Part shown: piece by piece, positions 3,925 to 52,199 of the stretch
Layout of the letters: every line of letters starts with the position of its first letter
Numbering within the stretch: position 1 is the stretch's first letter
Source: Octopus vulgaris
Lineage: Eukaryota
NCBI GenBank assembly: GCA_951406725.2
Contig: OX597815.1
Coordinates: 63,488,001-63,552,000, forward strand
Reading direction: 5' to 3'
DNA length: 64,000 nt
Notes under the pieces: model-generated
Seen by the model: only the letters and a program-made list of their open reading frames with translations
Database searches by the model: none
What the model was told of the DNA's origin: nothing
Made by a program: the position numbers and the translations under genes

Positions 3925-10488
<6,564 letters not shown>

Positions 10489-44499: not shown

Positions 44500-44795
44500 G
44501 TCTACTGCTTGTAGCTTGAGTCAGTTTTATGTGTCGATAGTACTTTAACCTCTTAGCATCAATCCAGCCTCCATGTTCTGCGTGAGAATGTTTGTAGAGC
44601 ACTGACGAGCTTTTCCCTTCTTTTAGCTCTCGCCAATGCTCATTTATACGTTCTCCTATGTTGCGTGCAGTCACTTCTATGTAGGTAGTTGTCATGTTTC
44701 TGCATCGTCCCTCAGTACATCGTAAGCTAAACACTACATTCCTAACCTTACAGTTAACCTGTGGGTTCAACCTATATACAACACATATTGATTCG
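44500..44795 (-). mobile_element. Penelope-like GIY-YIG endonuclease remnant
   Basis: CKVRNVVFSLRCTEGRCRNMTTTYIEVTARNIGERINEH...SVLYKHSHAEH resembles PLE C..KNVVY..C..C..YIGET.R.L..R..EH. Confidence 0.75.
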
Positions 44796-44796
44796 A

Positions 44797-44843
<47 letters not shown>

Positions 44844-44958
44844 ATAGAGGGCATTATTACACATAAATGCCTCACACTAGGAGGGACAAAGTCATTACTA
44901 CCAAAATTATACTAATCATACCCAAATGCAGTTTTTCAAAGCAAGACATTTAAAAAAT

Positions 44959-45027
44959 GAATTTAGTTCTGTATCACCGTGATTTCACATTCAACTTACG
45001 TCTAATGATCGTCAGCAGAACTGATTC
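44959..45027 (-). ncRNA. Type I hammerhead ribozyme
   Basis: Reverse complement identical to 51279-51347. Confidence 0.8.
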
Positions 45028-45438
45028 TGAACACATCATAAATAAACTACCAACCTTACGTAGCGAAGACGAACAGACAACTGCTCACTCCGGCCAAGCA
45101 CATGGAATGTTTATAAATCATATATCCGGTAAATGGCGGGCTTTTTACGAACTGCATGTCGGGTAATGAAAAGTATTTCGGAATAAGTTTAACAATTAAG
45201 GATAATCTCTTAATAAGGGATCTTAACAAGAAATTATCGGGTAGCTAGCGTGAAAACCTCATAAAAGAAAAGAATCCGAAAATAATTTTTTTCTTTTGAA
45301 CAAATTAATTATATCTATATTGTATAGAGGGCATTATTACACATAAATGCCTCACACTAGGAGGGACAAAGTCATTACTACCAAAATTATACTAATCATA
45401 CCCAAATGCAGTTTTTCAAAGCAAGACATTTAAAAAAT

Positions 45439-45507
45439 GAATTTAGTTCTGTATCACCGTGATTTCACATTCAACTTACGTCTAATGATCGTCAGCAGAA
45501 CTGATTC
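45439..45507 (-). ncRNA. Type I hammerhead ribozyme
   Basis: Reverse complement identical to 51279-51347. Confidence 0.8.
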
Positions 45508-45658
45508 TGAACACATCATAAATAAACTACCAACCTTACGTAGCGAAGACGAACAGACAACTGCTCACTCCGGCCAAGCACATGGAATGTTTATAAATCA
45601 TATATCCGGTAAATGGCGGGCTTTTTACGAACTGCATGTCGGGTAATGAAAAGTATTT

Positions 45659-45955
45659 GTGAGGCATTTATGTGTAATAATGCCCTCTATACAATATAGA
45701 TATAATTAATTTGTTCAAAAGAAAAAAATTATTTTCGGATTCTTTTCTTTTATGAGGTTTTCACGCTAGCTACCCGATAATTTCTTGTTAAGATCCCTTA
45801 TTAAGAGATTATCCTTAATTGTTAAACTTATTCCGAAATACTTTTCATTACCCGACATGCAGTTCGTAAAAAGCCCGCCATTTACCGGATATATGATTTA
45901 TAAACATTCCATGTGCTTGGCCGGAGTGAGCAGTTGTCTGTTCGTCTTCGCTACG
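45659..45955 (+). repeat. Right arm of 480-bp repeat, part upstream of LINE insertion
   Basis: Inverted relative to left arm; matches 51431-51728 apart from a 1-nt indel. Confidence 0.95.
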
Positions 45956-46229
45956 ATGTTACTTTGTTTGTTAGATGTTGCTTTTTCATCGATGCACTGA
46001 ACTTTGAACGACTGAATACGAGTGCCTGCTTGGTTGGTAAATTGCTGTTGCTTTGTTAATCACTGTTGTTTTGGTGTCTTTTCAATAAGACTGTTAGTGG
46101 CCTTCGTGCGAGGGCTGCGTACTTGGTTCCCCCCCCCCCGCGGGGGAATTATTGTGTGTCATCGTGTGTGAAACACATCCAAAAAAAAAAAAAAAAAAAT
46201 ATTTTTCTACAAACGGCTGCAAAGCCAGA

Positions 46230-47585
46230 ATGTCGTCGGAAGGCGGTGAATGCCAACTGGAAAAAAAACTCGAAATGGAGTCCCCCATTTCTTGTTCACC
46301 AATCTCAGGTGATGAAAGCTCTCAAGCCTCAGGTGAAGAAAGCTCACCGGCGGTGACGCCGGAAAAAGAATCGGCGGTAACGCCAGGAAAAAAGGCCCCA
46401 GCGAAGAAGTTCGCAGAAGTTGTGGGGCGTAAACAAAAAAATATAAATATAGACAATCTAGAAAAATACGAAGCCCTGCTAAAAAAAGAAGGAAATGAGA
46501 TAGCAATAAAAAAAGATGTTGAAAAAAAGGAAGAGATTGAAAAGAAAAGGATTATTTATAAGACATACAGCACGACAACAAAAAGTATACAAAAAGTGGA
46601 AGAGAGTAAAATAGAGGAGTGCCTGAAGGCAATTAGAAAGGATGTCACCTACATAAACAGAGGAAGACGCTTCGGAACGGTAGAAGTGAGGTTCAGGACC
46701 GAAGAAATAGCAAAGAGGCTATCTACCGAACCACAAAAAGCAGGAAACATAGTCCTTCTACCCTTGTACAAAGGAAGAAGGACTTCGAAAATAGTCATGA
46801 GGAATATTCCCCCAGAGGCGGACGCCACATGCCTGGTGGCGGCAGTGATGCTGGGCCTGAAGGAAAAAATCAATATCCTACAAGCTACAGTGGAGGAGGA
46901 GGGTTTTTGGCAGGGCCAGATCATCACAATGGCAATACAAGCGGAGGCCCAGACACTGGAGGAAATACCAGAGGTGCTGAGGCTCGATGAGGAGGAGAGA
47001 GTATTGGTATTTGTAGAAGGAAGAAAGCCGAGGTGCTTCGGCTGCGGGAAAAAGGGACACGTAAGAGCGGAGTGTCAACCTACACCGCAGGTAGAAGCAC
47101 CGTCGGAAAAAGAAGAAGCTGAGAAGGAAAAGAAAACAGAAGAAACCAAAGAGGTAGAAAAAGCATCGAGTGGTGCGGAAAAAGAAAAAGAAAACGAAAA
47201 AGAGGAGGGGTGGTCTAAAGTTACCAAAAAAAAACGGAAAACAGAAACCACCCCTCAAGAAGAAGAAAACCAGAAAAAAAGAAAAGAAGTTACTACTTCA
47301 TTTATGGCCATTAAGGCTACCAACAACAGACTAGTCAATGTGTTGGCAGCCATGGCCAATGTGGAAAGAGTAAGGAGAACAAAAGACTGTATCGTGTACA
47401 AAATAGGCCGGAAGGACTACAGGAGGATAAAATCCGAATTCTTCCACGACGTGGGCCCTCTGAGACTGGACATGTCTCCATATCTATACGAGGGCCTGCG
47501 TCGGACTCCCCCACGAGCCAAGGAAAAAAATAAAAGCGAAGAAGAACAAGGCGAACCAGTCGAACAAGCCAAACTACTGATATAA
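46230..47585 (+). CDS. LINE ORF1 Gag-like protein with zinc knuckle (451 aa)
   Basis: CFGCGKKGHVRAEC CCHC knuckle preceded by VFVEGRKPR, RRM-like segment, W.KV..KKRK basic motif; first in-frame ATG at 46230. Confidence 0.9.
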   Translation: MSSEGGECQLEKKLEMESPISCSPISGDESSQASGEESSPAVTPEKESAVTPGKKAPAKKFAEVVGRKQKNINIDNLEKYEALLKKEGNEIAIKKDVEKKEEIEKKRIIYKTYSTTTKSIQKVEESKIEECLKAIRKDVTYINRGRRFGTVEVRFRTEEIAKRLSTEPQKAGNIVLLPLYKGRRTSKIVMRNIPPEADATCLVAAVMLGLKEKINILQATVEEEGFWQGQIITMAIQAEAQTLEEIPEVLRLDEEERVLVFVEGRKPRCFGCGKKGHVRAECQPTPQVEAPSEKEEAEKEKKTEETKEVEKASSGAEKEKENEKEEGWSKVTKKKRKTETTPQEEENQKKRKEVTTSFMAIKATNNRLVNVLAAMANVERVRRTKDCIVYKIGRKDYRRIKSEFFHDVGPLRLDMSPYLYEGLRRTPPRAKEKNKSEEEQGEPVEQAKLLI

Positions 47586-47593
47586 GGTAAGTG

Positions 47594-50500
47594 ATGGACT
47601 ACATTTATGTTGGTTGTTTAAATGTGCGCGGCCTGGGATCAAGCGGGAAGCAAGGTCGCTTCCTTAATGATATCAGGTCGCGCAATTTGGATGTTATTGT
47701 TGCTACAGAAACCCGGTTAAAGGGGCCAAGAGGTCTACTCCCACTGTTTGACGGCTACGAGAGTTTTTTCTCTCCGGCCAGTCCTACAGGCGGGGGTGGG
47801 GTGTTGGTCCTATTAAAAAGAAACCGGGTTTTTGAGAAAAAGTTAATTTTTTCAGACCCAGAAGGTAGGCTGGTCGTCATGGATTTGACGTTCAGTAACG
47901 GTAAAGTTATCAGACTGGTTGCAATTTACGCACCCAACAGTAAAAAAGGGCAAAGTGATTATTTTCGTGATCTAGAAAACTTTCTCGGTACTTCGCATTC
48001 ATTAGTTGTGCTAGGAGACTTTAACACAATTTGCAAAGCGGATGTAGATTGTGTTGGCTCGAATGCAGATAGAAAAGGTAACTCATGCTTCCTGGAACTG
48101 CTAAGCCGCTTTGAGCTAGCAGATCCTTATAGGTTGGAATTTCCGAACGCTCCATTGTGGACATGGTCAAACAGCGACGGATCTTCCAGGTCATACATAG
48201 ATAGAATTCTAATTAGAAAGGTAGACAGTAAAATAGCTAAGTGTCCACAGTTTTACCCGATCAGCTACAGTGATCATAAAATGGTCACTTGTAAGCTTGA
48301 CATAGATAAGGTTAGAAATAGAGGATCCGGTTACTGGAAACTTAATACGTCCCTTTTGGCGATTAAGGAGTACAGAGACCGGATTAGGACCATAATTCAG
48401 AGGGCGCTGTCTGGTGCCATCATTAATAACAAATGGTGGTACGCCCTCAAACGAGCCATCAAGTTTGAGTCTATTAGATATAGCATAGGAGTAGTGTCTA
48501 GAGAGGCTAGAAGGGAAACTACTCTAGTTAAGGAATTAGAGGAAGCCATGAAAACTGGCTCTGCGGCTCAGGTGGCGTCCAAGAGACTGGTGTTAAACCA
48601 GCACCTCGAGGCCAAACACATGGGCTGCATTGTCAGGGCCAGAATCCGTCATATGGGATGTGAAGGAATCAACGCCGTGAGATGGGCCCGAGTGGTGGAA
48701 GCCCGGAATGGCAACGATGCCACGATTCGATCTTTGAAGAACCAACAAGGTGAGTTGATAGACGAACCCGAGGAGATGTGTGAGGCCTTTCAGGAGCACT
48801 TCGCTCAGCTTTTCGGTGAGTGCGGCGGGCTGGATAGGAGGAGGGCCTTTACGGACCTACTCGACGGGCTGCCGCGCTTATCGGGGCGAGATGCGGAGGG
48901 CTGTGAAGGGCCAATCACGCCTGAGGAGGTGGTGGAGGCAATGGCGGACTGCGGCGCGGGCAAGGCGCCGGGTTTGGATGGTCTACCCTACGAGTTATAT
49001 AAGAGTATGCCAGACTTGTTCGGGCACCTACTGGCGGAGGTCTATGCGAACTGGCAGCAGAACGGGCTTATACCCAGATCTGTGCGCCGGGGAGTGGTGA
49101 CTCTCGTCAGAAAGGACCCGAGCAAGGGGGAGTGCATTGATAATTTCAGGCCCATCACTCTGCTAAACACAGAGTTGAAGATTTTGGCCAAAGTGTTATC
49201 GAAAAGATTGGCGCGTGTCGCGGATGGTCTGATCGGAGAGGCACAGACATGTGCCGTTCCGGGCAGATCCATTCAGGATAATCTCCATCTAATGCGGTAC
49301 ACTATAGAGGGGTTTAATAAAGATTCTGGCAAGGGTGGGGTACTGGTCCATTTAGACCAATCTAAAGCCTTTGATAGGGTCGACCATCGTTACCTGGTAT
49401 CTGCCCTGGCACAGTTCGGGCTGAGCCTTGGCTTCCTCAGGTGGATTATCCAAATTTACGACAACATCGACTCGGTAGTTCGGGTGAACGGCTTCTTGTC
49501 GAAGCCGTTCAAAATCAAACGCTCGGTTCTTCAAGGGTGTCCGCTCTCCCCGCTTTTGTATGTGATGGCTCTTGAGCCATTACTGCGAAAACTGAGCGGC
49601 ATCCCGAGACAGCCAGGTAATGGAAAATCAGTGTCAGCGTACGCGGACGACATCACCATCATCGTGACCGAAATGGACCACCTATGTAAAGTAGGCAAGG
49701 CCATAGAGGTTTACGAGACGGTGACAGGAGCAAAAGTTAATCGCGAAAAGTCAGTCGGCTTGCAACTAGGCACCTGGAGAGGCAAGTCGATGCCTCCTGA
49801 CAGCGTCGTGGGACGTTGGACGGAGGGTCCGATTAAACTGCTAGGGGTCTGGTTCGGTCCAGACCTCCAAATAGAGAAGAATTGGGGCGAGGTAACGAGC
49901 AAGGTGGCTGCAGTAGCCAAGACCTGGTCTTGGCGGTGGCTATCCTTGAAAGGGAGGGCGGAGGTGGCCAATGTGTTTATCGCATCGGTTATCACCTACC
50001 GCCTTTCCGTCGTTCCTTGCCCCGATTCGTGGTTGACCAAGTTGGAAAGACAGCTCTTCTACTTCTTGTGGAAGGGTAGGAAACCACTTGTGAAACGCTC
50101 TACTTGCTGTCAACAACCGTTAAAGGGTGGGCTAGGGATGCCTTGGCTGATGATGCGCAGACATGCGCTGAGGTTAAGACATCTGTGGCTCTACCTGGAT
50201 GGTGAACGGGTGTGGTCTCCGTTAGCAAAACTGATGTTTCCCAAGTTCACTAGTTTCGGTGGACGGGAAACCTGGCCGAATCGTAGATCGAAACTTGGTA
50301 CATGGCATACGGAGTGTCGCAAGGCTCTCCTGCTATTCCGTCGCTCGGGCAACGCCTGCGGTGGGGGTTCCACCACATTCTTCTATAGAGGGTTGGTAGA
50401 GGCGAAATGTGAAGACACCTTGGGGGAAACCCTGGGTCTCGACGATAATCAGCTGGCCAGTCTGTTCCGACGTACGTTCGAGCCGAAGACACTGGACAAC

Positions 50501-50992
50501 TTCCAGAAGTCTCTGGCATGGCAATGCTACAGAGGAGCTCTACCTGTTCGGGATAAACTCGCAAGGCATGGTGGCCAAGACAGTCCGATGTGTCCAAGAT
50601 GCGGGCGGGATAGGGAAACCGTCCTGCACGCTATTGTTCATTGTTCGGTCGTGTCTGAGGTGTGGGTTTATGCCGAACAGCTGTTGTCAAGCACACGAAG
50701 AGTACAGCTGTCGACTGAGTGTATTAAAAAAATTGACCCACCAGATTTCCTCGCGAAAGAAGGTAAGAATTGTTTTCTCGTTGTGGTTGCAATTGCGAAA
50801 GAGGTGATATGGAAGACGAGAATGAAAGGTATACGGTCAGGTAAGTTCATATCCGGCCCTGGGTTGATGAATTACTTCATCTACCACCTGAAAAGGAAGA
50901 TAGGGCTGGAGAGAAAATGCCTGACTAAAAGAGTGTATGAAGAACGATGGAAGGATGTAGCACGGAAGTTGAGAATGGATGACACCACATAA
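47594..50992 (+). CDS. LINE ORF2: APE endonuclease, reverse transcriptase, C-terminal zinc finger (1132 aa)
   Basis: LNVRGL, IYAPN, LGDFN, YIDRIL, SDH (APE); YWKLN; PGLDG, FRPITLLN, LDQSKAFDRV, QGCPLSP, YADD (RT); CPRC..ETVLHAIVHC. Confidence 0.96.
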   Translation: MDYIYVGCLNVRGLGSSGKQGRFLNDIRSRNLDVIVATETRLKGPRGLLPLFDGYESFFSPASPTGGGGVLVLLKRNRVFEKKLIFSDPEGRLVVMDLTFSNGKVIRLVAIYAPNSKKGQSDYFRDLENFLGTSHSLVVLGDFNTICKADVDCVGSNADRKGNSCFLELLSRFELADPYRLEFPNAPLWTWSNSDGSSRSYIDRILIRKVDSKIAKCPQFYPISYSDHKMVTCKLDIDKVRNRGSGYWKLNTSLLAIKEYRDRIRTIIQRALSGAIINNKWWYALKRAIKFESIRYSIGVVSREARRETTLVKELEEAMKTGSAAQVASKRLVLNQHLEAKHMGCIVRARIRHMGCEGINAVRWARVVEARNGNDATIRSLKNQQGELIDEPEEMCEAFQEHFAQLFGECGGLDRRRAFTDLLDGLPRLSGRDAEGCEGPITPEEVVEAMADCGAGKAPGLDGLPYELYKSMPDLFGHLLAEVYANWQQNGLIPRSVRRGVVTLVRKDPSKGECIDNFRPITLLNTELKILAKVLSKRLARVADGLIGEAQTCAVPGRSIQDNLHLMRYTIEGFNKDSGKGGVLVHLDQSKAFDRVDHRYLVSALAQFGLSLGFLRWIIQIYDNIDSVVRVNGFLSKPFKIKRSVLQGCPLSPLLYVMALEPLLRKLSGIPRQPGNGKSVSAYADDITIIVTEMDHLCKVGKAIEVYETVTGAKVNREKSVGLQLGTWRGKSMPPDSVVGRWTEGPIKLLGVWFGPDLQIEKNWGEVTSKVAAVAKTWSWRWLSLKGRAEVANVFIASVITYRLSVVPCPDSWLTKLERQLFYFLWKGRKPLVKRSTCCQQPLKGGLGMPWLMMRRHALRLRHLWLYLDGERVWSPLAKLMFPKFTSFGGRETWPNRRSKLGTWHTECRKALLLFRRSGNACGGGSTTFFYRGLVEAKCEDTLGETLGLDDNQLASLFRRTFEPKTLDNFQKSLAWQCYRGALPVRDKLARHGGQDSPMCPRCGRDRETVLHAIVHCSVVSEVWVYAEQLLSSTRRVQLSTECIKKIDPPDFLAKEGKNCFLVVVAIAKEVIWKTRMKGIRSGKFISGPGLMNYFIYHLKRKIGLERKCLTKRVYEERWKDVARKLRMDDTT

Positions 50993-51278
50993 ATGTAAAT
51001 CAGAACGAAACCAAAAGTATCAGTGGTGAGGCGGGGCTCGTGGGGTCCGAGCTGAACCCGCCCCCACTCCACCTGTAATGTCTTCCGGTCTGTTTTTTCA
51101 TTCGATTTTATAATTTTTGCATTTTTGTGAATTTTTTGAATTTTTAATCTCATCCTTTTTGTAACCCCATCCGAGAATCTGACCCCACATCAGGTTGTAT
51201 TGTCCCCTCCTTGTTGGCCCCTTGTGGGTAATAATAAAACAGCTACGTAAGGTTGGTAGTTTATTTATGATGTGTTCA

Positions 51279-51347
51279 GAATCAGTTCTGCTGACGATCA
51301 TTAGACGTAAGTTGAATGTGAAATCACGGTGATACAGAACTAAATTC
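51279..51347 (+). ncRNA. Type I hammerhead ribozyme
   Basis: Stem I AGTTCTG/CAGAACT (extended GAAT/ATTC), core CTGACGA 51291-51297, stem II CATT-A-GAC-GTAA-GTT-G-AATG with GNRA loop, GAAA 51320-51323, stem III ATCAC-G-GTGAT, cleavage triplet AUA (after 51334); atypical U-U at base of stem II. Confidence 0.82.
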
Positions 51348-51759
51348 ATTTTTTAAATGTCTTGCTTTGAAAAACTGCATTTGGGTATGATTAGTATAAT
51401 TTTGGTAGTAATGACTTTGTCCCTCCTAGTGTGAGGCATTTATGTGTAATAATGCCCTCTATACAATATAGATATAATTAATTTGTTCAAAAGAAAAAAA
51501 TTATTTTCGGATTCTTTTCTTTTATGAGGTTTTCACGCTAGCTACCCGATAATTTCTTGTTAAGATCCCTTATTAAGAGATTATCCTTAATTGTTAAACT
51601 TATTCCGAAATACTTTTCATTACCCGACATGCAGTTCGTAAAAAGCCCGCCATTTACCGGATATATGATTTATAAACATTCCATGTGCTTGGCCGGAGGT
51701 GAGCAGTTGTCTGTTCGTCTTCGCTACGTAAGGTTGGTAGTTTATTTATGATGTGTTCA

Positions 51760-51828
51760 GAATCAGTTCTGCTGACGATCATTAGACGTAAGTTGAATGT
51801 GAAATCACGGTGATACAGAACTAAATTC
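51760..51828 (+). ncRNA. Type I hammerhead ribozyme
   Basis: Identical to 51279-51347. Confidence 0.8.
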
Positions 51829-52199
51829 ATTTTTTAAATGTCTTGCTTTGAAAAACTGCATTTGGGTATGATTAGTATAATTTTGGTAGTAATGACTTTG
51901 TCCCTCCTAGTGTGAGGCATTTATGTGTAATAATGCCCTCTATACAATATAGATATAATTAATTTGTTCAAAAGAAAAAAATTATTTTCGGATTCTTTTC
52001 TTTTATGAGGTTTTCACGCTAGCTACCCGATAATTTCTTGTTAAGATCCCTTATTAAGAGATTATCCTTAATTGTTAAACTTATATATATATATATATAT
52101 ACATGCTCGAATCAAGTGGTCCTGGTCCATTTTGGACATTACTCTGATTATGCCAGCTTTCGAAGAATCTTTGGTGTTATGGGCGTGTTCATTGACCTC

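Follow-up and report, generated by a model that had tools for sequence, protein, structure and literature searches.

An intact Tx1-type LINE in a hammerhead-bearing repeat of Octopus vulgaris, and a family found behind the TATA-like motifs of two multicopy repeats

An intact long interspersed nuclear element (LINE) of L1/Tx1 type lies inside a short array of a retrozyme-type repeat, each unit of which bears a hammerhead-like motif, in the microsatellite-rich 2.8-Gb genome of Octopus vulgaris. All plain coordinates are positions in the window, a 64-kb stretch of contig OX597815.1 (assembly GCA_951406725.2, positions 63,488,001 to 63,552,000 of the forward strand); C-numbers denote chromosome-level loci of the same genome. 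The full-length LINE (45956-51241, plus strand, as are its parts) was delimited by its open reading frames (ORFs), flanks, domains and comparison with other copies. According to the ORF list and Pfam, ORF1 (46230-47585) is open over 451 aa and has one putative CCHC knuckle, and ORF2 (47594-50992) is open over 1132 aa and encodes an apurinic/apyrimidinic-type (APE) endonuclease, a reverse transcriptase (RT) and a C-terminal zf-RVT. All three ORF2 domains lie above the Pfam cut-offs, and the best matches of ORF2 in the Protein Data Bank are L1 endonuclease structures (E 1.8e-11). ORF1 proteins of the Tx1 clade combine RNA-binding domains with a CCHC knuckle; the zf-CCHC match here is weak (E 0.07, below the Pfam cut-off), and Atlas matches comprise CCHC clusters (0.91-0.92) and, as weak look-alikes, ZCCHC3-like clusters (0.88-0.89). 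The 3' untranslated region (UTR; 50993-51241) ends in a short tail and has no poly(A). A 17-mer taken from it was rejected as a measure of LINE copy number, having 25,085 exact genomic copies and being common to other repeats.

The Tx1-clade feature found is an ORF2 with APE endonuclease, RT and a C-terminal Cys-rich zinc motif. This domain set also occurs in L1 and is therefore not specific to Tx1. Membership in Tx1 rests on architecture; in a homologue search that did not include Repbase families, none of 82 homologues was named Tx1. Across full-length copies, ORF2 is 97-100% alike while the 5' UTR and ORF1 drop to 80-95%, which suggests that 5' halves have been swapped among copies by recombination.

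The units of the host array measure 480-481 bp and are mutually 99.6-100% identical, in agreement with the earlier note on this DNA, which had placed the LINE inside a very young array. Both ends of the repeat insertion are (TA)n microsatellites (44799-44840 on the left and 52082-52101 on the right), and a 12-bp inverted repeat (44788-44799 and 52103-52114) lies just outside them. Self-comparison resolves an inverted part (44830-45658, minus strand), in which two start-site regions are uninterrupted and two hammerhead-like motifs occur, and the units 3' of the LINE (51242-52084, plus strand), one whole and one of 362 bp. The partial unit 5' of the LINE (45658-45955, plus strand), likely promoter-bearing, matches the inverted copy over 298 identical bases. 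The genome contains 226 exact copies of a 23-mer from the unit, equivalent to ~0.004% of its sequence, and 47 loci behind the first 100 listed matches were surveyed. These are short tandem or tandem-plus-inverted arrays, mostly (TA)n-ended. Two unit positions (~235 and ~362), each a TA-like stretch running into (TA)n, account for most of the repeat's 3' ends. A Penelope-type layout, with partial tandem units, an inverted 5'-truncated copy and a microsatellite target, is present in the window and in many of the 47 loci. Such a tandem/inverted layout is described for Penelope-like elements (PMC8557442), and a similar one for retrozymes without long terminal repeats (non-LTR retrozymes; PMC7229834; bioRxiv 10.64898/2026.07.22.740005).

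As in non-LTR retrozymes, the tandem units each bear a predicted type I hammerhead core. Motif analysis places the first downstream copy at 51285-51340 (plus strand), with a predicted cut after 51334, and a second at 51766-51821. The ORFs and coordinates bear out the earlier description of a two-ORF LINE that is co-oriented with this motif and ends 93 nt before the predicted cut. Among 107 motif copies (one locus counted twice), the core, stem I and stem III are nearly invariant. Position 7 is the free position of the hammerhead core, where variation is expected, and is C in 57 copies, G in 40 and T in 10; at the remaining core positions, changes are confined to single or double copies. Stem II opens with a U-U pair, the usual first pair being G-C. 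The hammerhead fold is calculated at -7.5 kcal/mol versus -9.5 for the minimum-energy fold, and free folding of 51240-51400 (z 0.27) did not yield it. Rfam returned no hammerhead or other credible family for the window, for the region at E<=10 or for 12 flank loci. The hammerhead seems incidental to the LINE, no examined copy of which ends at the cut site.

Upstream of the LINE, a TATAAA at 45899-45904 (plus strand), which we take to be a TATA box, lies 27 nt before a putative transcription start at 45926 (+1), placed there by leaders on other copies. The interval 45926-45955 (plus strand) would then form a repeat-derived 5' leader of the LINE RNA. GCTACG occurs at the end of this interval (45950-45955, plus strand, +25 to +30) and again at the start of the downstream units (51242-51247); by junction comparison, the final G of the left copy may equal the first LINE base. 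What had been noted as a clean GCTACG duplication is present in both copies, but the left one could stem from the leader of the LINE RNA, in which case the 6 bp would not reflect truly staggered cutting. One unit has an extra G at the putative start site (51698-51699), and a few other loci have small changes there.

Genome-wide, a search with the last 202 nt of the LINE scored the best 40 of 781 candidates and returned 30 loci. The 3' flanks of 30 of 41 matches were read and sorted by eye, with arrays checked on longer stretches. Four of these 30 close ends abut the repeat, five the leader of a second repeat (target B) and 11 the 5' end of another Tx1 element, while 10 lie elsewhere, two of them with one common flank. 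Many 3' flanks begin, by eye, with a loose G-N-T-A-Y. On the 5' side, where 30 of 40 near-full-length matches were read, 19 follow a Tx1 tail, five the TATA motif of target B (six with one variant), two the TATA/promoter of the repeat and one the repeat leader only; two have other flanks. Five arrays or single copies traced to their 5' end begin directly behind the target B TATA (on C22, C24 and C8, and two on C27). Members of the family are thus found just behind the TATA-like motifs of two multicopy repeats, and the two motifs are unrelated.

The family is also enriched in the ribozyme repeat far beyond chance. With 226 units (a lower bound) and uniform insertion assumed, the probability that at least two of 30 ends fall in the repeat is ~6.5e-7; since four of 30 abut a sequence covering ~0.004% of the genome, chance insertion was rejected. 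The suggestion that the LINE targets this repeat therefore survives as a preference, but not as strict sequence specificity. The unrelated flanks named beforehand as evidence against targeting are found in part: 26 of the 30 3' ends lie outside the repeat, and the family is therefore not specific for it. Nor is the proposed recognition of the junction between ttcgctacg and taagg supported: only two genomic sites have intact repeat context followed by the LINE at the window's junction, and the main address is an unrelated promoter. A strictly sequence-specific behavior of the Keno or R2 type is not seen, given the four of 30 ends in the repeat, two targets, dispersed copies and variable 3' junctions.

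Within the repeat, insertions cluster behind the putative start. A genome-wide pattern of LINE tail followed by a repeat probe gave seven matches. Counted from 45926, the 3' junctions lie at +3 (three matches, with the tail of an ORF1-only relative), +9 (a 44-nt tail fragment on C20), +14 (C25) and +25 (the window and C3:181M), a spread of ~22 nt. The less biased survey of the 47 repeat loci found Tx1-type insertions at four, each within +3 to +30; in the stretches read, the other 43 have none. All insertions seen in the repeat are co-oriented with the hammerhead. The 5' junction is identical in all three full-length repeat-linked copies, and three of the four copies with the window-type 5' end come after repeat sequence. 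The length of the apparent duplication is not constant, at 6 bp in the window and 18 bp on C25.

Pieces of the repeat are also carried elsewhere. An ORF1-only dimer on C14 lies at an unrelated site with a 16-bp duplication, within which it carries 19 nt of repeat; this leader begins at the base equal to 45926, which in the window has TATAAA 27 nt to its 5' side. At C3:23.59M, a full-length LINE is preceded by 24-25 nt of repeat, with no unit in the 7 kb upstream. The C25 array has a private A in the duplicated stretch, both in the uninterrupted inverted copy and in the downstream copy, but the copy of this stretch found at the 5' junction of the LINE reads C, the common allele, instead of the local A; the A allele occurs in one of 86 uninterrupted regions. 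Together, the three observations suggest RNAs whose transcription begins within the repeat. The ORF1-only relative is a non-autonomous Tx1-type element of 1.7 kb that uses both targets and carries the repeat leader (C3:23.598M, C7:128.249M, C14:53.076M and C8:37.48M; L089-L093). One copy (L093), 96% identical, lacks the repeat leader and has a B-type context.

At least 2.1 kb long, target B combines CCAAT-, octamer- and TATA-like motifs with a short leader and contains an internally deleted mariner of opposite orientation. It gave 122 matches; in 12 of 30 sampled copies, a Tx1 tail lies just 5' of the leader. In copies that lack a LINE, the start site often holds short, variable inserts. A small nuclear RNA-type promoter with a U2/U6 upstream element was considered and found for neither target. 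The 100 nt upstream of either target have no local match above shuffles to 25 U2 upstream regions (lowest p 0.11), and by-eye comparison with U6 (8 of 12 loci) revealed at most a TATA-like stretch in common with either. Two of the 25 U2 genes are directly preceded by an apparent LINE tail (by eye; L245 and L252). The evidence suggests that target B is the older address of the family, because the window 5' UTR resembles the B leader and the fourth of the copies sharing the window-type 5' end lies in a B-type array. The resembling stretch (45985-46027, plus strand; alignment and by-eye comparison) is likely a trace of that earlier address.

Target choice is not reflected in the endonuclease. Between three repeat-linked and 11 B-type copies there are no diagnostic residues in the endonuclease, four in ORF1 and one in the rest of ORF2, and the endonuclease region of the window copy has no differences from that of a dispersed C24 copy. 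Measured against the window copy, ORF1 shows a synonymous divergence of 0.04-0.05 for repeat-linked copies and 0.17-0.34 for B-type copies; for the part of ORF2 beyond the endonuclease, the value is 0.03-0.05 in either group. B-type ORF1s differ widely among themselves, and ORF1 divergence alone is therefore no predictor of target.

The best explanation is likely promoter squatting with a captured leader, to which we assign a probability of roughly 60%. It draws on repeat junctions confined to +3 to +30, repeat leaders at unrelated sites and arrays of relatives behind the target B TATA. The window copy belongs to a small branch that likely moved from target B to the start of the retrozyme-type repeat. 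The promoter of the host repeat would transcribe the LINE, and the RNA would therefore start with ~25-30 nt of repeat. The earlier idea that the LINE exploits the repeat's transcription gains indirect support in this way, through the captured 5' leaders. A ribonucleoprotein with a general affinity for open promoters would likely be involved, protein tethering of the TRE5-A kind being the lead, and would nick loosely, a few bases downstream of the start. Following reverse transcription, the leader complementary DNA (cDNA) would likely anneal to the same target sequence, as proposed for R2, fixing the 5' junction and favoring promoters that match the leader. A copy landing behind a new promoter would acquire a new leader and, with it, a different preferred address. 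The hammerhead probably plays no part beyond, at most, trimming read-through RNA 93 nt past the LINE. A further proposition, that the captured 20-30 promoter-derived bases themselves guide the next insertion to the same promoter, so that the target is reprogrammed by RNA while the endonuclease stays unchanged, is tentative and rather doubtful.

Several points weigh against promoter squatting with leader capture. The start site, the promoter activity and the ribozyme activity are all predictions. Unrelated sites account for 10 of the 30 3' ends, several of which have duplications of an ordinary 15-19 bp, and the junction patterns could detect only this part of the repeat unit. Events are few, namely two full-length LINEs inside the repeat plus the truncated C3:181M, which has the window's junction, is its sister in the 3' tree and may be co-mobilized or descend from the same insertion. 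Leader and ORF1 co-occur in the three copies, so their roles are not separable, and support for the repeat-linked ORF1 group is only 74/92. A second difference in the left duplicate on C25 does not match the common allele. Leader-bearing copies also insert off target (C14, C3:23.59M and C15). At the C15 site, a LINE dimer is seen with neither promoter, and the dimer with 1 kb of 3' flank recurs on C10 at 99%; this recurrence suggests transcription without a target promoter or a copy made at the DNA level, and the dimer with its flank is likely a 3' transduction. The recurring dimer and flank (C15:65.74M and C10:43.62M) are joined head to head with another array.

Among the alternatives, a founder effect with passive carriage fares best, although it is unlikely. 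Under it, the LINE landed once in the repeat and other copies arose through Penelope-type mobilization or read-through, with no nicking preference. The C3:181M copy fits this account, sharing the window's junction and being its sister at 99.4%, as do the composite at C3:23.59M, which ends at the repeat's usual (TA)n end point, and two ORF1-only insertions at +3 (C3 and C7) that resemble one copied event. However, a single landing does not readily produce four distinct 3' junctions (+3, +9, +14 and +25) in two element families, or repeat-linked LINE 3' ends in two separate clades of the 3' tree (27 rows, of which L021 was mis-extracted and forms a long branch; L002, L003 and L008 were left out as too short). 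The window array also retains three uninterrupted start regions, the 44-nt tail-only insertion at +9 on C20 lacks a full-length leader cDNA, and target B has the same start-site pattern.

A first nick guided by RNA, in which the leader pairs with the template strand at the open promoter and directs the endonuclease, is less probable still. It would account for nicks that all fall within the leader-covered span (+3 to +25), for the uniform co-orientation, for a target that follows the leader in two families while the endonuclease is unchanged, and for a 5'-truncated tail on C20 that is still on target. However, we know of no precedent among APE-type LINEs, leader-bearing copies occur at the unrelated C14, C3:23.59M and C15 sites, and promoter affinity combined with second-strand annealing explains the same data.

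Recognition by the endonuclease of the sequence at the window's junction is very improbable. The 5' junction shared by three copies, the 3' junction shared by two and the loose G-N-T-A-Y of many flanks would agree with it, but most 3' ends (26 of 30) lie elsewhere, 3' junctions within the repeat vary, the endonuclease is identical to that of the dispersed C24 copy, and the two targets have no obvious common junction sequence. Finally, co-orientation and the 93-nt distance might suggest that the hammerhead makes the 3' end of the LINE RNA and that 93 nt of target homology prime insertion into the repeat, an idea that can hardly be entertained, as none of the 30 3' ends carries repeat sequence stopping at the cut site and the family thrives at target B, where Rfam had no match.

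Elsewhere in the window, fragments of the RT of another LINE, which we take to be R4/Dong- or RTE-like, occur at 4209-6183, near a 2.8-kb (AAT)n array (7639-10487).

These results bear on how APE-type LINEs gain and switch targets. Here, two unrelated start sites are used by copies whose ORF2s are 97-100% alike, and nothing but the 5' leader and ORF1 clearly correlates with the site; such copies offer a natural pair for swap experiments, together with an intact young copy. Retrozyme-type repeats join the list of Tx1 targets. A literature search, with Repbase and most subscription papers outside its scope, found no paper on Tx1 insertion into retrozymes. A recent octopus repeat annotation reports active L1-Tx1 and Penelope families, and the words 'hammerhead', 'retrozyme' and 'target' are absent from its main text (PMC13282606).

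The host repeat resembles non-LTR retrozymes and Penelope pseudo-long terminal repeat (pLTR) repeats in its short tandem units, type I hammerhead, low GC and lack of an ORF, as well as in its inverted 5'-truncated part and (TA)n targets (PMC7229834; PMC8557442). Unlike the retrozymes quoted there, its unit is 481 bp rather than ~300 bp, and stem II opens with U-U. Tx1-clade LINEs known to prefer other transposons include Xenopus Tx1, which inserts in Tx1D, the crocodilian Tx1-Mar, Tx1-8_Crp, Tx1-4_AMi and Tx1-9_AMi, and SINEU, for which transcription from flanking target DNA has been suggested (PMC4494074). Like these, the octopus family is a two-ORF APE LINE with a preference rather than strict specificity, a mobile-repeat target, tandem insertions and a non-autonomous partner on the same target. 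However, its targets are a hammerhead-bearing Penelope-type repeat and a second TATA-bearing repeat, its position follows the putative start site, and the target switches among copies with near-identical ORF2s.

The RNA of R2 retains 9-36 nt of upstream 28S, and its uniform 5' junctions are explained by cDNA annealing (PMC3774820). The octopus LINE shares with R2 co-transcription with the target (presumed here), a target-derived 5' leader, uniform 5' junctions and an occasional duplicated leader with its own substitutions. R2 differs in its restriction-like endonuclease, its fixed 3' junction and a leader set by a hepatitis delta virus (HDV)-like ribozyme (PMC3774820), whereas the octopus LINE has variable 3' junctions and a leader likely determined by a transcription start. 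Dictyostelium TRE5-A is likewise an L1-like APE LINE positioned relative to a promoter, and binding of its ORF1 protein to TFIIIB subunits is the proposed tether (PMC5911963). TRE5 elements insert 40-54 bp upstream of RNA polymerase III genes and in the opposite orientation (PMC5911963), whereas the octopus LINE inserts downstream of its putative promoters and co-oriented with them.

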